From NCBI GenBank assembly GCA_963749415.1, contig CAVVMG010000001.1, positions 1,575,581 to 1,639,580 on the forward strand: a stretch of DNA of 64,000 nucleotides, read 5' to 3'. Source of the DNA: an uncultured Acidobacteriota bacterium (GTDB lineage Bacteria; Actinomycetota; Acidimicrobiia; Spongiisociales; ZC4RG35). The position numbers and the translations under genes were made by a program. Shown here piece by piece: positions 1 to 3,917 of this stretch (its first letter is position 1; every line of letters begins with the position of its first letter). The notes under the pieces are model-generated. The model was not told the DNA's origin. It saw only the letters and a program-made list of their open reading frames with translations, and did not search any database.

Positions 1-676
1 GCGCTTCGGCGAGTGATGCGTCCACATCGGCGTCGGTGAGGCTGGGCTCGATGGTGACCACCGGGATCGTGAGCTCTTGTGCTTCGGTGGAGAGGAGGGA
101 GGACTCGACGATGGCCAATCCCGCCGGGCGATCCACGCCACTTCCGATTGCCGGATACACCGCCTGGAGCTCTCCCTCGACGAGCTCGATGCCACCCTGG
201 TTGGCGGGGCGAGCGATCACCTCTGTGTCCCAGGTGTCGAAGATCGCGTTGACCGAATCGGCATCGATCGCGCCGCTGACCGGGATATGCACCGTGGAGA
301 AGATGTGGCCCAGCCACCACGTGAACTGGGAGAGCGGGCTTCCCTCCCGTCCCACCAGCATCGCCTCGTCGACGATGGTGTCTTCGTCGACGTCGAGCCC
401 GGCTTCGGGTGGGATCAGGCTGACCACCTTCCCGTCGAGATTGAAGATCGCTGGCCGCGCCAGGTACTCGTCTTCGACCGCGACCATCGCGGTTAATGCC
501 TGTTCCTCGTCGAGACCCCCTAACTGCGTGCCGGACACTTCGACGCGGCCGATCACCTCGCCTCTGGACGTGGCCCTGGTGAGGCCGTAGAGACCAAAGA
601 GGAGAGCGAGGACGGCTCCCAGGCCGAGGGCAGCCGCGAGCCATATGTTGTTGGGAGGGGAGAGGTGTTTGTTCAT
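1..676 (-). CDS. Membrane-anchored peptidoglycan-binding (VanW-like/PG_binding_4) protein, C-terminus runs off the window
   Basis: Manual translation from ATG at 676: MNKHLSPPNNIWLAAALGLGAVLALLFGLYGL (TM helix), then ...VEVSGTQLGGLDEEQA..., resembling VanW-family N-termini. Absent from the ORF track because it has no stop in the window. Confidence 0.6.
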   Translation of the reverse strand, partial: MNKHLSPPNNIWLAAALGLGAVLALLFGLYGLTRATSRGEVIGRVEVSGTQLGGLDEEQALTAMVAVEDEYLARPAIFNLDGKVVSLIPPEAGLDVDEDTIVDEAMLVGREGSPLSQFTWWLGHIFSTVHIPVSGAIDADSVNAIFDTWDTEVIARPANQGGIELVEGELQAVYPAIGSGVDRPAGLAIVESSLLSTEAQELTIPVVTIEPSLTDADVDASLAEA

Positions 677-750
677 TCAGAAGGCCGCCCCAAACGACCT
701 AGTGGATGGCCCGGGGATGGTAACGCCGACGCGATTCCTATTTGCAGTCG

Positions 751-772
751 TGTCCCAGGCGCGCCCTACGCT
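751..772 (+). promoter_or_regulatory. PafBC/RecA-NDp-like promoter TGTCCC-N10-TACGCT
   Basis: TGTCCC at 751-756, TACGCT at 767-772, then 6 nt to an in-frame GTG at 779 (leaderless arrangement). Confidence 0.55.
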
Positions 773-778
773 TTTCCC

Positions 779-1555
779 GTGGTAGTCGCCTTTCCCGATG
801 TGGTCGATGGAGACGCCATCCGAGTCTCCGCGACCACATACGTCACCTACAAGAAGTGCCCGGGGCAGGCCAACGCCAGGCTGCAGGGCGTTTTCGGCCC
901 GGATTCGCGTGCCTCATTCCTGGGAAGCCTCGCCCACCGCATGTTCAGCCGGCATCTCACCGCAGGCCCCATCGCCTCCGAGGAGTTCGTGCAGGCGTGC
1001 CGCGAGGAGATCGGAGGGTCGGCCCTCAACCACAAGCTGGGGCCCCTCGAGCTCAAGCCCTCCATCCTGGCCTCGATGATCGAAGAGGTCCGCGGGCTCT
1101 ACGAGCGCTTCACCCGACTACCAACTGAGGGCTTCGAAGGGTCGGAGGTGTCGATCTCGCGGGAGCCGGTCTCCGGTGTCGAGCTGGTCGGCTCGGTGGA
1201 CGCCGTGTATCGGGAGGACCTCGGAGGCCATCGGCTCGTCGACTGGAAGACCGGGGACCTGGGCGAGCCCGAAGATCAGCTTCTCTTCTACGCCCTGCTC
1301 TGGGCGCTGGAGAAGGACGAGCTACCGGCCTACGTGGAGGCGGTGTCGGTCCGCACCGGGGAGCGCTACCGGACTGTTCCCAGCACCGCAGATGTGAATC
1401 GGGTGGCCACGGAGGTGGGAGGCCTGGTCGATGACCTGCGCCGGGCATGGGCCAGCGGGAACGAGCCTGTGCGCCACGGTGGCCCATGGTGCCGGTATTG
1501 CCCGTTGCTCGAGGATTGTGTCGAGGGAAAGGCCGCCGGGGCGCTGCTCGATTGA
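779..1555 (+). CDS. PD-(D/E)XK nuclease, RecB/AddB/Cas4-like, with four-Cys Fe-S staple
   Basis: KKCPG; GSVDAVY...LVDWKTG; QLLFY; C-terminal CRYCPLLEDC. Start moved from 665 to GTG 779 on the basis of the promoter. Confidence 0.8.
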   Translation: MVVAFPDVVDGDAIRVSATTYVTYKKCPGQANARLQGVFGPDSRASFLGSLAHRMFSRHLTAGPIASEEFVQACREEIGGSALNHKLGPLELKPSILASMIEEVRGLYERFTRLPTEGFEGSEVSISREPVSGVELVGSVDAVYREDLGGHRLVDWKTGDLGEPEDQLLFYALLWALEKDELPAYVEAVSVRTGERYRTVPSTADVNRVATEVGGLVDDLRRAWASGNEPVRHGGPWCRYCPLLEDCVEGKAAGALLD

Positions 1556-1568
1556 GCAGCGCCCCGGC
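1535..1568. terminator. Perfect 15-bp inverted repeat between convergent genes
   Basis: GCCGGGGCGCTGCTC-gatt-GAGCAGCGCCCCGGC, spanning the nuclease stop and lying just downstream of the micro-ORF stop. There is no U-tract. Confidence 0.6.
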
Positions 1569-1580
1569 AGGATCCATCCG

Positions 1581-1634
1581 TCAGCAGCAACAGCTCCCGC
1601 CGCCGCAACATCCGGATATGTCGACGGAAATCAT
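1581..1634 (-). CDS. 17-aa cysteine-rich micropeptide MISVDISGCCGGGSCCC (putative metal/metalloid-binding)
   Basis: ATG at 1634 with AGGAAGGAG SD 6 nt upstream, TGA at 1581-1583, hairpin downstream, divergent from arsR. Confidence 0.65.
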   Translation of the reverse strand: MISVDISGCCGGGSCCC

Positions 1635-1649
1635 CTGAGGCTCCTTCCT

Positions 1650-1701
1650 ATCGATGATCTTCGATGTATCGATCTTGGTCGATGGATAGATATGTGTCAA
1701 T
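1650..1701. promoter_or_regulatory. Three tandem ArsR/SmtB-type operators, ATCGA-N6-TCGAT
   Basis: ATCGAtgatctTCGAT (1650), ATCGAtcttggTCGAT (1668), ATAGAtatgtgTCAAT (1686), with exact 18-bp periodicity. Confidence 0.65.
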
Positions 1702-1710
1702 ATGTGGGCC

Positions 1711-2043
1711 ATGGAATTCTGTTGCACGCCGATCTTCGAGGGCGTCATCGATGAGGACGGTGCTGAGGACACCGCCCGGGCGCTTGCTGCCCTGGGCGAC
1801 CCGGTGCGGCTCAGGATCGTCTCCTTGCTCGCCGCGGCGCCGGAGGGGACGGCCTGCGGCTGTGAGCTCGAGTCACCGCTCGGGTTGAGCCAGCCCACCG
1901 TGTCGCACCATCTTCGGATACTCCGTGAGGCGGGTCTGGTCAGCGGACGCAGGGAGGGCCGGTGGGTTCACTATCAGGTGGTGCCCGGTCGTCTCGAGGA
2001 GTTGCGTGAAGCTCTGACCCCTCCTGTGCTCGCCGGCGTCTAG
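1711..2043 (+). CDS. arsR: ArsR/SmtB family metalloregulator
   Basis: ALGDPVRLRIV, CGCELE, LSQPTVSHHLRILREAGLV, REGRWVHY; N-terminal CC. Confidence 0.9.
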   Translation: MEFCCTPIFEGVIDEDGAEDTARALAALGDPVRLRIVSLLAAAPEGTACGCELESPLGLSQPTVSHHLRILREAGLVSGRREGRWVHYQVVPGRLEELREALTPPVLAGV

Positions 2044-2105: not shown

Positions 2106-2537
2106 ATGCAGAGCCGCGCCACCGCAACCTGGGAAGGTGACCTACCCACCGGTTCCGGGACCACGACATTGGCCACCGGCGTCGCCCCACCTCTGCCCGT
2201 GAGCTGGCCGAGCCGCACCGAGGAAGCCGCGGGAAAGACCAGCCCCGAGGAGTTGATCGCCGCCGCTCACGCCGCCTGCTATTCGATGGCGTTTGCCAAC
2301 GGGCTCTCCGGCCGCGGCTTCGTCCCCGATCGCCTGGAGACCTCTGCGGAAGCCACCTTCGAGAAGATGGAGCCCGGATGGCGCCTGACCACCATGGCTT
2401 TGAGGGTCACCGGGAATGTTCCCGGCATCGGGGAGGACGAGTTCCAGGAGGCGGCCGTCGCCGCCAAGGATGGATGCCCGGTGTCCAACGCGCTGAAGGG
2501 GAACGTGAACATCAGCATCGAGGCGTCGCTGGCCTGA
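2106..2537 (+). CDS. osmC: OsmC family peroxiredoxin
   Basis: ATWEGDL, SPEELIAAAHAACYSMA, AKDGCPVSNAL. Confidence 0.92.
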   Translation: MQSRATATWEGDLPTGSGTTTLATGVAPPLPVSWPSRTEEAAGKTSPEELIAAAHAACYSMAFANGLSGRGFVPDRLETSAEATFEKMEPGWRLTTMALRVTGNVPGIGEDEFQEAAVAAKDGCPVSNALKGNVNISIEASLA

Positions 2538-2541
2538 ACGG

Positions 2542-3078
2542 TCAGCCCTGGGTCATCTCGGCGAGCCGGGTGACCGTGTTCCAGTTGCGCATGGTCCCCC
2601 GGATCCCGAGCGTCTTCTCGAAGTAGCCGAGGCCCAACTTCGAACGCCCCTGCCCGTTGGGAAACTCCACGTAGATCTCCTGTCCGGCGACTTCGAAGCG
2701 ATCCGCCTGGAATCGGTCCGGCTCCAGTTCCGCGACCGCGGCCGCTTTCGGTCGGTCTTCGAGAAACACCACGTGGAGTTGGATCGCATTGGATTTATCG
2801 GTGCCAAGGGGGTGAGCTCGGGAAATCGCCGCCAGTTGCCGCCCGCTCCTGGTGATCACGGTTATGTCCAGGCCGAAGCGCTCGGAGATCACGTCGGCCA
2901 CGACCCGCGCATCATCCCGACCCTTGGGCCCGGCGGCGAACACGACATTCCCGCTCTGGACATAGGTGGCCACGTCCTCGAGGCCGGCCTCGTCGAGCGC
3001 CACCTTGAGCTCAGCCATCGGGATCCGGGCTCTGCCCCCCAAATTCACCCCACGCAGCAGGGCAGCAACCCGACTCAC
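2542..3078 (-). CDS. DUF1697 domain protein
   Basis: ALLRGVNLGG, TYVQSGNVVF, TMRNWNTV. The GTG start overlaps the upstream stop (GTGA). Confidence 0.88.
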   Translation of the reverse strand: MSRVAALLRGVNLGGRARIPMAELKVALDEAGLEDVATYVQSGNVVFAAGPKGRDDARVVADVISERFGLDITVITRSGRQLAAISRAHPLGTDKSNAIQLHVVFLEDRPKAAAVAELEPDRFQADRFEVAGQEIYVEFPNGQGRSKLGLGYFEKTLGIRGTMRNWNTVTRLAEMTQG

Positions 3079-3917
3079 CTCGGAGGCCTGACTCCCCTGA
3101 ATTCCCAATCGCCGCCGAGCGCCGTGGAAACGACCTCTTCGGACTCGGTGGGTTGGGCGCCCAGTTCGTCTGCGATCGGAACTTGCCCCTCGACGATGGT
3201 GTTGGTGAGCGCCCCCAGACCTTCCACCTCCACGGTCACCACATCACCGGGCACGACCGGTCGTGACCCTGCCGGCGTCCCGCTCAGGATCACGTCACCG
3301 GGGAACAATGTGATCGTGCGAGCGAGATCGGCCACCAGATACGCCATGTCCCATTCCATCTCCGAGGTGGTGGCCTCCTGGCGAACCTCCCCGTTTACCA
3401 GAGTCCGTATCGACTTTTCGTGGAAGTTCCAATCGTCGATGAGCCCCGGTCCCAGGGGGCAGAGTGTGTCGGAGCCCTTGACCCGCAGCATCGAGCCGGC
3501 ATCGGTGTCCCTGAAGTCATGGAGGCCGAAGTCGTTGGCGATGGTGTAGCCGGCGACGAAGTCGAGCGCCTGGTCCCGCCCGACCCCCTTGCACTCCCTG
3601 CCGATGACGATCGCGATCTCTCCCTCGAAGTTCAGGAACCGGCATCTCGGGGGGCGCACCACATCGCCGCCGTGGGCGTTCAATGCGCTGGTCGGCTTTT
3701 GAAAGTAGGTGGGAGCGGAAGGGAGTCGGGTCATGAACTCGTCCACCCGGCTCCGGTAGTTGAGGTGCACCGCCAAGACCTTCGTCGGCTCCACCGGTGG
3801 AAGGTGTATGGCGGTCGCCAAATCGAAGCGGCGTCCTTCCTCGCCGATCAGATCGTCTCCGTCGCGCACCACCGTGTGCGGGATCGCTCCCACCAGGATT
3901 CGGCGGACCTCGGCCAT
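3075..3917 (-). CDS. Fumarylacetoacetate hydrolase family protein (HpaG-like isomerase/decarboxylase)
   Basis: HLNY, FEGEIAIVIG, YTIAND, KGSDTLCPLGP, PGDVILSGTP. Confidence 0.88.
   Translation of the reverse strand: MAEVRRILVGAIPHTVVRDGDDLIGEEGRRFDLATAIHLPPVEPTKVLAVHLNYRSRVDEFMTRLPSAPTYFQKPTSALNAHGGDVVRPPRCRFLNFEGEIAIVIGRECKGVGRDQALDFVAGYTIANDFGLHDFRDTDAGSMLRVKGSDTLCPLGPGLIDDWNFHEKSIRTLVNGEVRQEATTSEMEWDMAYLVADLARTITLFPGDVILSGTPAGSRPVVPGDVVTVEVEGLGALTNTIVEGQVPIADELGAQPTESEEVVSTALGGDWEFRGVRPPR

Follow-up and report, generated by a model that had tools for sequence, protein, structure and literature searches.

The 64,000-nt stretch of contig CAVVMG010000001.1 (assembly GCA_963749415.1) analysed here, referred to as the window, carries a very small gene for a cysteine-rich peptide, MISVDISGCCGGGSCCC, with five Cys among its final nine residues, which is divergent from arsR1, the gene of an ArsR/SmtB repressor. 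The pair of this uncalled gene and an arsenic-type repressor gene recurs within a family of Acidimicrobiia. The peptide open reading frame (ORF) was conserved at the codon level in relatives, the linkage with an ArsR-type gene and the operator and promoter elements between the two genes were conserved as well, and the Cys tail was similar to the As(III)-binding tails of larger proteins. With moderate confidence it is proposed that the ORF is a real translated gene which forms a two-gene unit with arsR1, and that its product is an ArsR-repressed peptide binding As(III) or soft metals, either as a buffer or as a carrier. As such, it would belong to the known kind of repressor-controlled, thiol-rich metal binders, and the free, ArsR-linked form of 15–21 residues would be new.

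Codon-level conservation of the micropeptide gene

The ORF reads ATG ATT TCC GTC GAC ATA TCC GGA TGT TGC GGC GGC GGG AGC TGT TGC TGC TGA. A preliminary description of the window, made from the letters alone, had pointed out the ORF, its Shine-Dalgarno (SD) sequence, the ATG, the five-Cys tail and the stop codon, and all of these were found where it had placed them (Table 1). As a control for chance, the whole 2.66-Mb genome (65% GC) was scanned for start-to-stop ORFs of 8–40 residues. This resulted in 68,779 ORFs, 335 of which had at least four Cys; 28 of the latter were also preceded by an SD-like motif, and 10 of these started with ATG. By inspection, the micropeptide had the highest Cys density of the 10, with 5 Cys in 17 residues vs. 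4–6 Cys in 25–40 residues in the other nine.

The search for relatives was anchored on ArsR and not on the peptide, covering 60 related genomes and the genome of the window, and 30 loci were retrieved. A divergent ORF with an SD, an ATG and a Cys tail was detected in 16 of the 30 ArsR-anchored loci of relatives. With the arsR1 orthologues of at least 79% identity, the ORF with its SD, ATG and GCCGGGxCC tail was present in 12 cases out of 12, i.e. in the genome of the window and in 11 genomes of the same genus (L008 of the unpublished genome G011 included, on which no single conclusion depends). Beyond this set, the ORF was determined in L014 and L015 (72% and 64% ArsR identity, respectively), in L017, which belongs to another family (53%, MAPIKITGDAGGDDSDCCSGCGPGCC), and in L020 (54%, MDCCDVGSGGCCCC). 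The metagenome ArsR loci contained the peptide in 5 of 80 cases, namely L151, L152 and L154 (72–80% ArsR identity) and the divergent forms L163 and L192; another metagenome locus, L153, is cut off 71 nt upstream.

In the G-C-C-G-G-G core of the 17 ArsR-anchored orthologues, codon positions 1, 2 and 3 varied in 2, 1 and 6 of the 6 columns, respectively, and the substitutions were TGT/TGC and GGN exchanges. The ATG was present in all 17 orthologues, and a stop followed the Cys tail in every one of them. The lengths of the orthologous peptides ranged from 15 to 21 residues, so that every length difference was in frame. In a set of 13 loci, GGAG was located 5–6 nt ahead of the ATG without exception, and a regular-expression search for GGAG followed by 4–9 nt recovered the SD in each of the 17 ArsR-anchored loci. 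Six of these 17 had an in-frame stop shortly upstream of the ATG.

Two longer frames were considered as candidates for the gene and rejected. The long form of 39 residues with a TTG start is broken by in-frame stops in relatives (6 of 17), and a frame of 105 residues antisense to arsR is also broken by in-frame stops in relatives.

The interruption of the TTG-start frame in 6 of the 17 loci, together with the codon pattern, indicates that the ORF is not what is left of a longer gene, and also not a motif conserved at the DNA level. The preliminary description had proposed to look for codon-level conservation beside arsR orthologues and to consider whether the ORF is such a remnant. The presence of the peptide at 12 of 12 close arsR orthologues with changes of the third-position type, the synonymous TGT/TGC and GGN changes around a conserved SD, ATG and set of Cys codons, and the upstream stops combined with a stop after every Cys tail all came out on the side of a gene. 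Judged from purifying selection at the codon level and from the conserved start, stop and frame, the micro-ORF is a genuine coding gene and not a chance ORF.

For the wider distribution, the pattern GGAG-N4-9-ATG-N12-42-TGYTGYGGNGGNGG was searched for in 401 genomes belonging to the order. The pattern was detected in 36 of 124 genomes of family f1 and in the genome of the window; the reversed-pattern control matched in 9 f1 genomes (counted from the table). Outside f1, the strict SD-ATG-CCGG pattern was not visibly above the reversed control when the table was read without a count, a comparison which is uninformative on divergent forms. Twenty peptide-like f1 matches were chosen by eye and retrieved, with the unpublished genomes G226 and G300 left out. 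An ORF of 15–20 residues and a convergent nuclease gene were present in all 20 loci, and a divergent ArsR1 orthologue (58–77% identity) in 19.

The explanation to which the lowest probability is assigned is that the ORF is incidental and untranslated and lies within a conserved regulatory spacer. It would be in keeping with the lack of any gene caller's product for the peptide in a collection of 15 billion proteins. The third-position pattern of the core, the conserved SD, ATG and stop and the in-frame length changes speak against it, as do the independent Cys-tail micropeptides next to unrelated ArsR-like genes in other phyla (see below). The suggestion of the preliminary description that gene callers miss the peptide was supported by an exact look-up, in which none of five peptide forms occurred among ~15 billion called proteins. 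For the 41-residue frame, no word-sharing candidate of 22–72 residues was found among 5.8 billion clusters. With no exact called-protein match for five forms and no family model, the peptide is invisible to annotation pipelines.

Linkage with ArsR1 and arsenic genes

ArsR1 matched the model NF033788 with 97 bits (cut-off 55). The translation of arsR1 possibly begins at the conserved ATG 1711 (MEFCC), and the start may be leaderless. The Cys set of the protein consists of the N-terminal Cys7-Cys8 and of Cys51-x-Cys53 in helix 3. For CgArsR, the type-3 As(III) site is given as Cys15/Cys16 plus Cys55 (PMC11868830). ArsR1 resembles it in the layout of an N-terminal vicinal Cys pair and a helix-3 Cys, and is thus a candidate As(III) sensor.

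Altogether 130 loci were classed by the gene divergent from the ArsR homologue. The slot was occupied by the peptide in 39 loci (19 of these were retrieved via the peptide pattern), by arsM in 19, by arsI/cadI (NF041414, 193 bits) in 26 and by another gene in 40; the slot was truncated upstream in 5 loci, and arsR was missing in 1. The N-terminal CC and the helix-3 CxC were each found in 38 of 39 regulators of the peptide class. The corresponding values were 18/19 and 19/19 for the arsM class, and 25/26 and 18/26 for the arsI/cadI class. Separately, an ArsI/CadI-family protein divergent from an ArsR homologue was observed to carry vicinal Cys pairs near its C-terminus (L016:989-1420, minus strand, ending ...ACCTSTEPAAACCSA).

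In the other genera, the genes after arsR1 are convergent and, from their translations read by eye, DUF1697-like or amidotransferase-like. Since the genes downstream of arsR1 are convergent and unrelated outside genus g1, the peptide is the sole conserved partner of arsR1 there. The idea that the peptide is a target of ArsR was thus strengthened: the link is kept in close orthologues, recurs in unrelated lineages and involves the only conserved partner outside the genus.

No arsB, acr3, arsC or arsM gene adjoins the peptide-arsR1 pair, as had been noted earlier. A second arsenic cluster of the same genome (L282, G000:C1:344161-348474) lies 1.23 Mb from the peptide locus. It contains arsM (NF008823, 299 bits) divergent from arsR2, an arsenate-reductase-like fusion and an MIP channel, and further on a second reductase-like gene, another ArsR-like gene and an MFS transporter. 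As read from the sequence, the layout of the arsM-arsR2 spacer equals that of the peptide-arsR1 spacer (TTGACA-N4-TCGAT...ATCGA-N6-TCGAT), and therefore arsM holds beside arsR2 the position that the peptide holds beside arsR1.

Operators, promoter and hairpin

The spacer between the peptide gene and arsR is 67 bp long and contains two tandem 18-nt repeats (1649-1666 and 1667-1684, 78% alike), each with the dyad ATCGA-N6-TCGAT. Operator-like dyads are thus present in the upstream region which the preliminary description had seen as covered by ArsR-type operators, and they are putative ArsR1 binding sites. The whole 2.66-Mb genome has only 6 copies of ATCGA-N6-TCGAT, two of them in the peptide-arsR1 spacer and one between arsM and arsR2. 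In an alignment of 36 loci, dyad 1 was kept across genera as ATCGAAG.TCATCGAT, and the consensus of the whole region was ATATTGACA-N4-TCGAT-N2-ATCGAC-N-AAGATCAAT-N3-ATCGAAG-N-TCATCGAT-...-AGGAG. The elements TTGACA-N17-CAAGAT, the dyads and the SD were conserved in at least 5 genera; the -35 hexamer was gapped in L277 and read TTGACT in L264. The peptide promoter would accordingly consist of TTGACA and CAAGAT, followed by a leader of ~30 nt which holds dyad 1 and the SD. A back-to-back promoter of arsR1 is predicted at TTGGTC (1675-1680) and CAATAT (1698-1703).

The perfect 15-bp hairpin which the preliminary description had placed after the peptide stop was present. The corresponding RNA (1600..1515, 86 nt) had a folding energy of -53.1 kcal/mol (z = -5.78), and 0 of 200 shuffled sequences were as stable. 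In relatives, the pairing was preserved via changes on both arms, as seen by eye (e.g. L015, L152, L263). Since the stop codon of the convergent PD-(D/E)XK nuclease gene (1553-1555) coincides with part of the hairpin, the element is common to both genes, and the earlier view of it as the peptide's own terminator had to be given up. It probably terminates transcription in both directions and has no U-tract. In the region 1300-2200, no Rfam family reached its gathering score, and only sub-threshold hairpin matches were obtained.

The hairpin also bears on the possibility that the ORF is a cysteine-sensing leader, on which the ribosome stalls at the Cys run when Cys-tRNA is low and thereby regulates a downstream gene. 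The run of Cys codons closing a tiny ORF in an actinobacterium fits such a function, and polycysteine attenuators are documented in mycobacteria as unannotated leaderless small ORFs upstream of cysteine-metabolism operons that act by ribosome stalling (10.1101/834739). The peptide gene shares with them the nature of a Cys-codon-rich, unannotated actinobacterial small ORF. In contrast to the leaderless attenuators with a co-oriented operon, the peptide gene has an SD and an inferred leader, so it is not leaderless; it also has a probable terminator, and there is no same-strand gene downstream, only the strong hairpin after 12 nt and then a convergent gene. In addition, the neighbours are not cysteine-metabolism genes, and the micropeptides of L137 and L044 end at a classical U-tract terminator. 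A leader function is thus considered very unlikely.

The Cys tail as a recurring module

The closest counterpart of the peptide is the C-terminal tail of ArsD. ArsD of plasmid R46 ends ...SCCGGKTSCC. The peptide, with the end SGCCGGGSCCC, likewise carries two vicinal Cys groups 3–5 residues apart at a free C-terminus, and like ArsD it would belong to an ArsR-controlled arsenic locus. According to PMC4562236 and PMC6683785, the C-terminal vicinal pairs of ArsD, Cys112-113 and Cys119-120, are the metalloid sites MBS2 and MBS3. ArsD is a protein of 120 residues with an N-terminal chaperone site (Cys12/13/18), whereas the peptide is the tail alone as a gene. ArsD (PF06953) had no match in this genome, the peptide sharing only the tail motif, and the likeness of the two tails may be convergent.

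The tail was also found fused to ArsM. At least four ArsM proteins of Chloroflexota (L039, L040, L051, L102), from metagenome-assembled genomes (MAGs) of Chloroflexia and Limnocylindria, end in GCCGGGGCC; L040 ArsM scored 281 bits with NF008823, and an ArsR gene is adjacent in L039 and L040. In these proteins the tail is part of an enzyme, whereas here it is free and takes the place which arsM has next to homologous repressors.

A global scan for GGNTGYTGYGGNGGNGGNNNNTGYTGY gave at least 121 matches at at least 120 loci, most of which were chance occurrences or motifs within proteins. Among the matches listed, 38 of 121 were within 4 codons of an in-frame stop, and 12 of 120 loci had an ArsR tblastn match within ~1 kb of the motif. 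The matches listed also included free micropeptides near ArsR-like genes: MFTQDPELTVCCDDGCCGGGGCC in a Chloroflexia MAG (L044), convergent with the ArsR-like gene and equipped with an SD and a U-tract terminator; MVEIELTEAGLCGGGCCGGGGCC in an Anaerolineales MAG (L137), downstream of the ArsR-like gene with its own SD and U-tract terminator; and a micropeptide downstream of the ArsR-like gene in a Proteobacteria MAG (L052), the start codon of which is ambiguous. The ArsR-like genes of these three loci are unrelated to the clade of ArsR1, and the micropeptides are accordingly read as an independent recurrence in other phyla.

SmtB and SmtA had been named as an analogue of ArsR1 and the peptide. 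The pair consists of an ArsR/SmtB repressor divergent from a metallothionein gene. AzuR/NmtA of Anabaena is a further ArsR-family repressor with a divergent small Cys-rich metal-binding product (PMC8790569). The analogy holds for the repressor divergent from a small Cys-rich product; in the product itself, the ArsD tail is closer to the peptide than an SmtA-type metallothionein. SmtA-type proteins have ~55 residues and a defined zinc-cluster fold, and bacterial metallothioneins in general have ~50–60 residues with a cluster-forming Cys/His pattern, whereas the peptides here have 15–21 residues and 3–6 Cys, the 17-residue form being a third of that length. For two homologues of 20 and 26 residues, neither Pfam nor NCBIfam gave any family at E ≤ 10, and hence no metallothionein model (SmtA/BmtA, MymT) was matched.

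Phytochelatins and synthetic (Glu-Cys)n peptides are short acidic Cys-rich buffers of Cd and As (PMC8041291), and the peptides described here often have Asp or Glu ahead of the first Cys pair. The synthesis of phytochelatins is enzymatic, starts from glutathione and gives gamma-Glu links, whereas the peptide would be ribosomal. The synthetic Glu-Cys peptides are engineered and not natural.

The conserved pair of genes and the ArsD tails leave some room for the peptide being a regulatory partner of ArsR1 and not a bulk chelator, i.e. giving or taking metalloid or binding ArsR1 and in this way tuning the induction threshold. The peptide and arsR1 are the only conserved pair, and a regulatory role has been proposed for the C-terminal pairs of ArsD (PMC4562236). 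On the other hand, the strong SD and the consensus -35 suggest a high output, which would suit a stoichiometric binder, and the fusion of similar tails to ArsM suggests that they handle substrate. The regulatory role is therefore rated as improbable.

Further carriers of the tail were recorded, membrane proteins among them. Among the matches listed, FmdB zinc-ribbon proteins (TIGR02605) of ~70–100 residues end in GCCGGGGCC at L037, L053, L061, L063, L064, L078, L094, L108, L071 and L113; their hosts include Nocardia, Streptomyces, Actinoplanes, Actinomadura and several MAGs. In Gemella (L110, L139), a HesB/IscA-like Fe-S assembly protein scored 56.8 bits with TIGR00049, just under the cut-off, and an acidic linker with a GGCCGGGCCCGH/R tail replaces its usual C-terminus. 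Streptomyces frames with repeated YGPGCC units ending CCGGGxCCG before the stop (L092 of Streptomyces chlorus, L045, L066, L098) may represent a different family of Cys-rich small proteins. In an isolate of Microcella alkaliphila (L123, 2576-2620, minus strand), MSDLDGCCGGGLCC was detected; an SD-like motif and a hairpin accompany it, and the repeats upstream are rich in ATCGAT. By look, its neighbours are a threonine-aldolase-like gene and a membrane protein. At L123 and at L073, which has a similar micropeptide, no ArsR match was found nearby.

Proposed function

The proposal that the peptide is a chelator is drawn from the control by ArsR, the equivalence of its slot with those of arsM and arsI/cadI, and the likeness to the ArsD tail and to the ArsM tail fusions. 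Without an inducer, ArsR1 would sit on the ATCGA-N6-TCGAT dyads and cover the peptide -10, the 5' untranslated region (UTR) and the arsR1 promoter. A thiophilic metal or metalloid bound at Cys7/Cys8 and Cys51/Cys53 would free ArsR1 from the DNA; As(III) or Sb(III) would be the most likely inducer, with Cd, Hg and Cu(I) as further candidates. A short mRNA with a leader of ~30 nt, the strong SD, 17 codons and the hairpin would then be transcribed and translated. The peptide is predicted to hold the metal(loid) via its two vicinal-Cys groups (CC-GGG-x-CC), and as a buffer it would lower the free concentration; as a carrier it may hand the metal(loid) to ArsM or to an exporter. The lowered free metal(loid) would let ArsR1 repress again, which would close a negative feedback loop.

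Several observations weigh against this proposal. With the best specific model, NF041413 of the Rv2640c family, ArsR1 reached 90.7 bits, which is under the cut-off of 155; by this score it is a relative of that family and not a member. A Cys4-type site could sense Cd or Pb, as CadC does, and the Cys site of ArsR1 could also sense oxidants instead. Not every locus keeps the pair. L013 (G031:C222) has an arsR1 orthologue of 74% identity beside the PD-(D/E)XK gene, and its spacer is devoid of the micropeptide gene, which by synteny is a loss of the peptide gene. In G009 (L262, G009:C1:1047800-1050900), the peptide is located at 1531-1584 with the promoter and operators kept, arsR1 is missing and the directly divergent gene is osmC. 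The locus represents a natural arsR1 deletion within the same genus, and the peptide may be constitutive there or under the control of a paralogue. The related genomes are non-independent observations, and the 20 retrieved f1 loci were selected with a fixed Cys/Gly core, so they support distribution and synteny and add nothing to the codon argument. A consensus scan of 1300-2200 called 0 sigma-70 promoters and 0 terminators, and the hairpin has no T-run or U-tract. A look-up of RNA runs for 1300-2600 listed none. Finally, among the matches listed, the same tail occurs on non-arsenic proteins, namely FmdB, HesB/IscA-like and DUF2892-like proteins (the last by our own reading, NCBIfam having assigned no family), and the module may be a general metal or Fe-S ligand.

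The putative co-transcription of arsR1 and osmC in the genus of the window also counts against the proposal, as it fits thiol or oxidative stress equally well. In this alternative, ArsR1 senses Cys oxidation, an electrophile or persulfide, and the peptide is a sacrificial or carrier thiol acting with OsmC and not a metal binder. An osmC gene follows arsR1 in the same operon at 13 loci, L001-L012 and the metagenome contig L151 (80% identical), the peptide is directly divergent from osmC in G009, and ArsR1 weakly matched the model of the sulfite/persulfide sensor BigR (48.5 bits). The BigR score is far under the cut-off of 155, however, and homologous regulators with the same Cys set adjoin arsM or arsI/cadI. 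Moreover, osmC was not found at L013-L015, L152, L154 and L263-L281, and its linkage was seen only in the genus of the window; 24 loci with the peptide from other genera lack it. As genes similar to the DUF1697 and fumarylacetoacetate-hydrolase-like genes of the window lie directly 3' of arsR1 in other genera, osmC looks inserted into an older arrangement. A thiol or redox function is thus regarded as unlikely, though slightly less so than the regulatory partnership.

A precursor of a ribosomally synthesized and post-translationally modified peptide (RiPP), leading for instance to a thioether, a thioamide or a metallophore, would likewise be small, Cys-rich and ribosomal, variable at its N-terminal end and conserved at its C-terminal end. 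The N-terminal part of the peptide, with 7–10 residues, is short for a leader. The neighbours are nuclease, arsR1, osmC, DUF1697-like and amidotransferase-like genes, and no maturation enzyme, protease, exporter or immunity gene was recognised within ~1.5 kb at the loci examined, most flanking ORFs outside the window having been named by five-query tblastn and reading of the N-terminus, not by family search. A RiPP origin appears highly improbable.

If the metal-binding function holds, the peptide would be a new and extremely small part of bacterial arsenic and metal resistance, controlled by a repressor and ~17 residues long. It would provide a function for a regulator whose only conserved partner is the peptide, and the recurrence of vicinal-Cys tails on ArsD and ArsM would be easier to understand. 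More tentatively, and with somewhat less than even confidence, GCCGGGxCC followed by a stop is proposed to be a portable metal(loid)-thiolate module. It would occur fused (ArsD, some ArsM, FmdB and others) or as a free product of 15–21 residues, the sole conserved target of a dedicated ArsR, and the free form would be the smallest natural gene-encoded chelator or carrier of metal(loid)s. It would be the ribosomal equivalent of phytochelatin and would have escaped gene callers systematically in several phyla. The peptide could serve as a natural scaffold for biosensing or bioremediation, its chemical synthesis being feasible. In more general terms, the case shows that real micropeptide genes can be found by searching the DNA divergent from metal-sensing repressor genes.

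Features of the locus and minor observations

Table 1. Positions of the genes and sequence elements around the micropeptide gene in the window.
Feature	Position	Strand	Basis and remarks
Micropeptide gene MISVDISGCCGGGSCCC, 17 codons and TGA	1634..1581	-	ORF read from the sequence
Shine-Dalgarno sequence AGGAAGGAG of the micropeptide gene	1649..1641	-	6-nt spacer CCTCAG to ATG
Operator-like dyad 1 ATCGATGATCTTCGAT	1650..1665		within the predicted 5' UTR of the micropeptide mRNA
Operator-like dyad 2 ATCGATCTTGGTCGAT	1668..1683		covers the peptide -10 and the predicted -35 of arsR
Peptide -10-like hexamer CAAGAT (CATAAT in some relatives)	1677..1672	-	17 nt after TTGACA, read from the alignment
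Peptide -35 hexamer TTGACA	1700..1695	-	1 nt from arsR ATG 1702; in the consensus (at least 80%) of 36 loci
Perfect hairpin, 15 bp, 4-nt loop	arms 1535-1549/1554-1568		12 nt after the peptide stop, 100% complementary
arsR1, ArsR/SmtB repressor	1702..2043	+	PF01022, E = 1.4e-16
osmC, OsmC-family peroxiredoxin, downstream of arsR1	2106..2537	+	PF02566; TIGR03562, 156 bits
DUF1697 gene, convergent to arsR-osmC	2542-3108	-	PF08002
Fumarylacetoacetate-hydrolase-like gene, convergent to arsR-osmC	3075-3917	-	translation reading only
PD-(D/E)XK nuclease gene, convergent to the peptide gene	665..1555	+	PF12705, E = 1.9e-18; syntenic in the family

The literature search for ArsR- or arsenic-linked Cys-rich small peptides or small ORFs, with most subscription journals and supplements outside its scope, found nothing relevant. 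In one genome of the order (G133:C1), a sequence of ~45 nt starting GGAGGTGGCCTGATG... was observed at 11 places; it probably marks the beginning of a mobile-element gene present in several copies.

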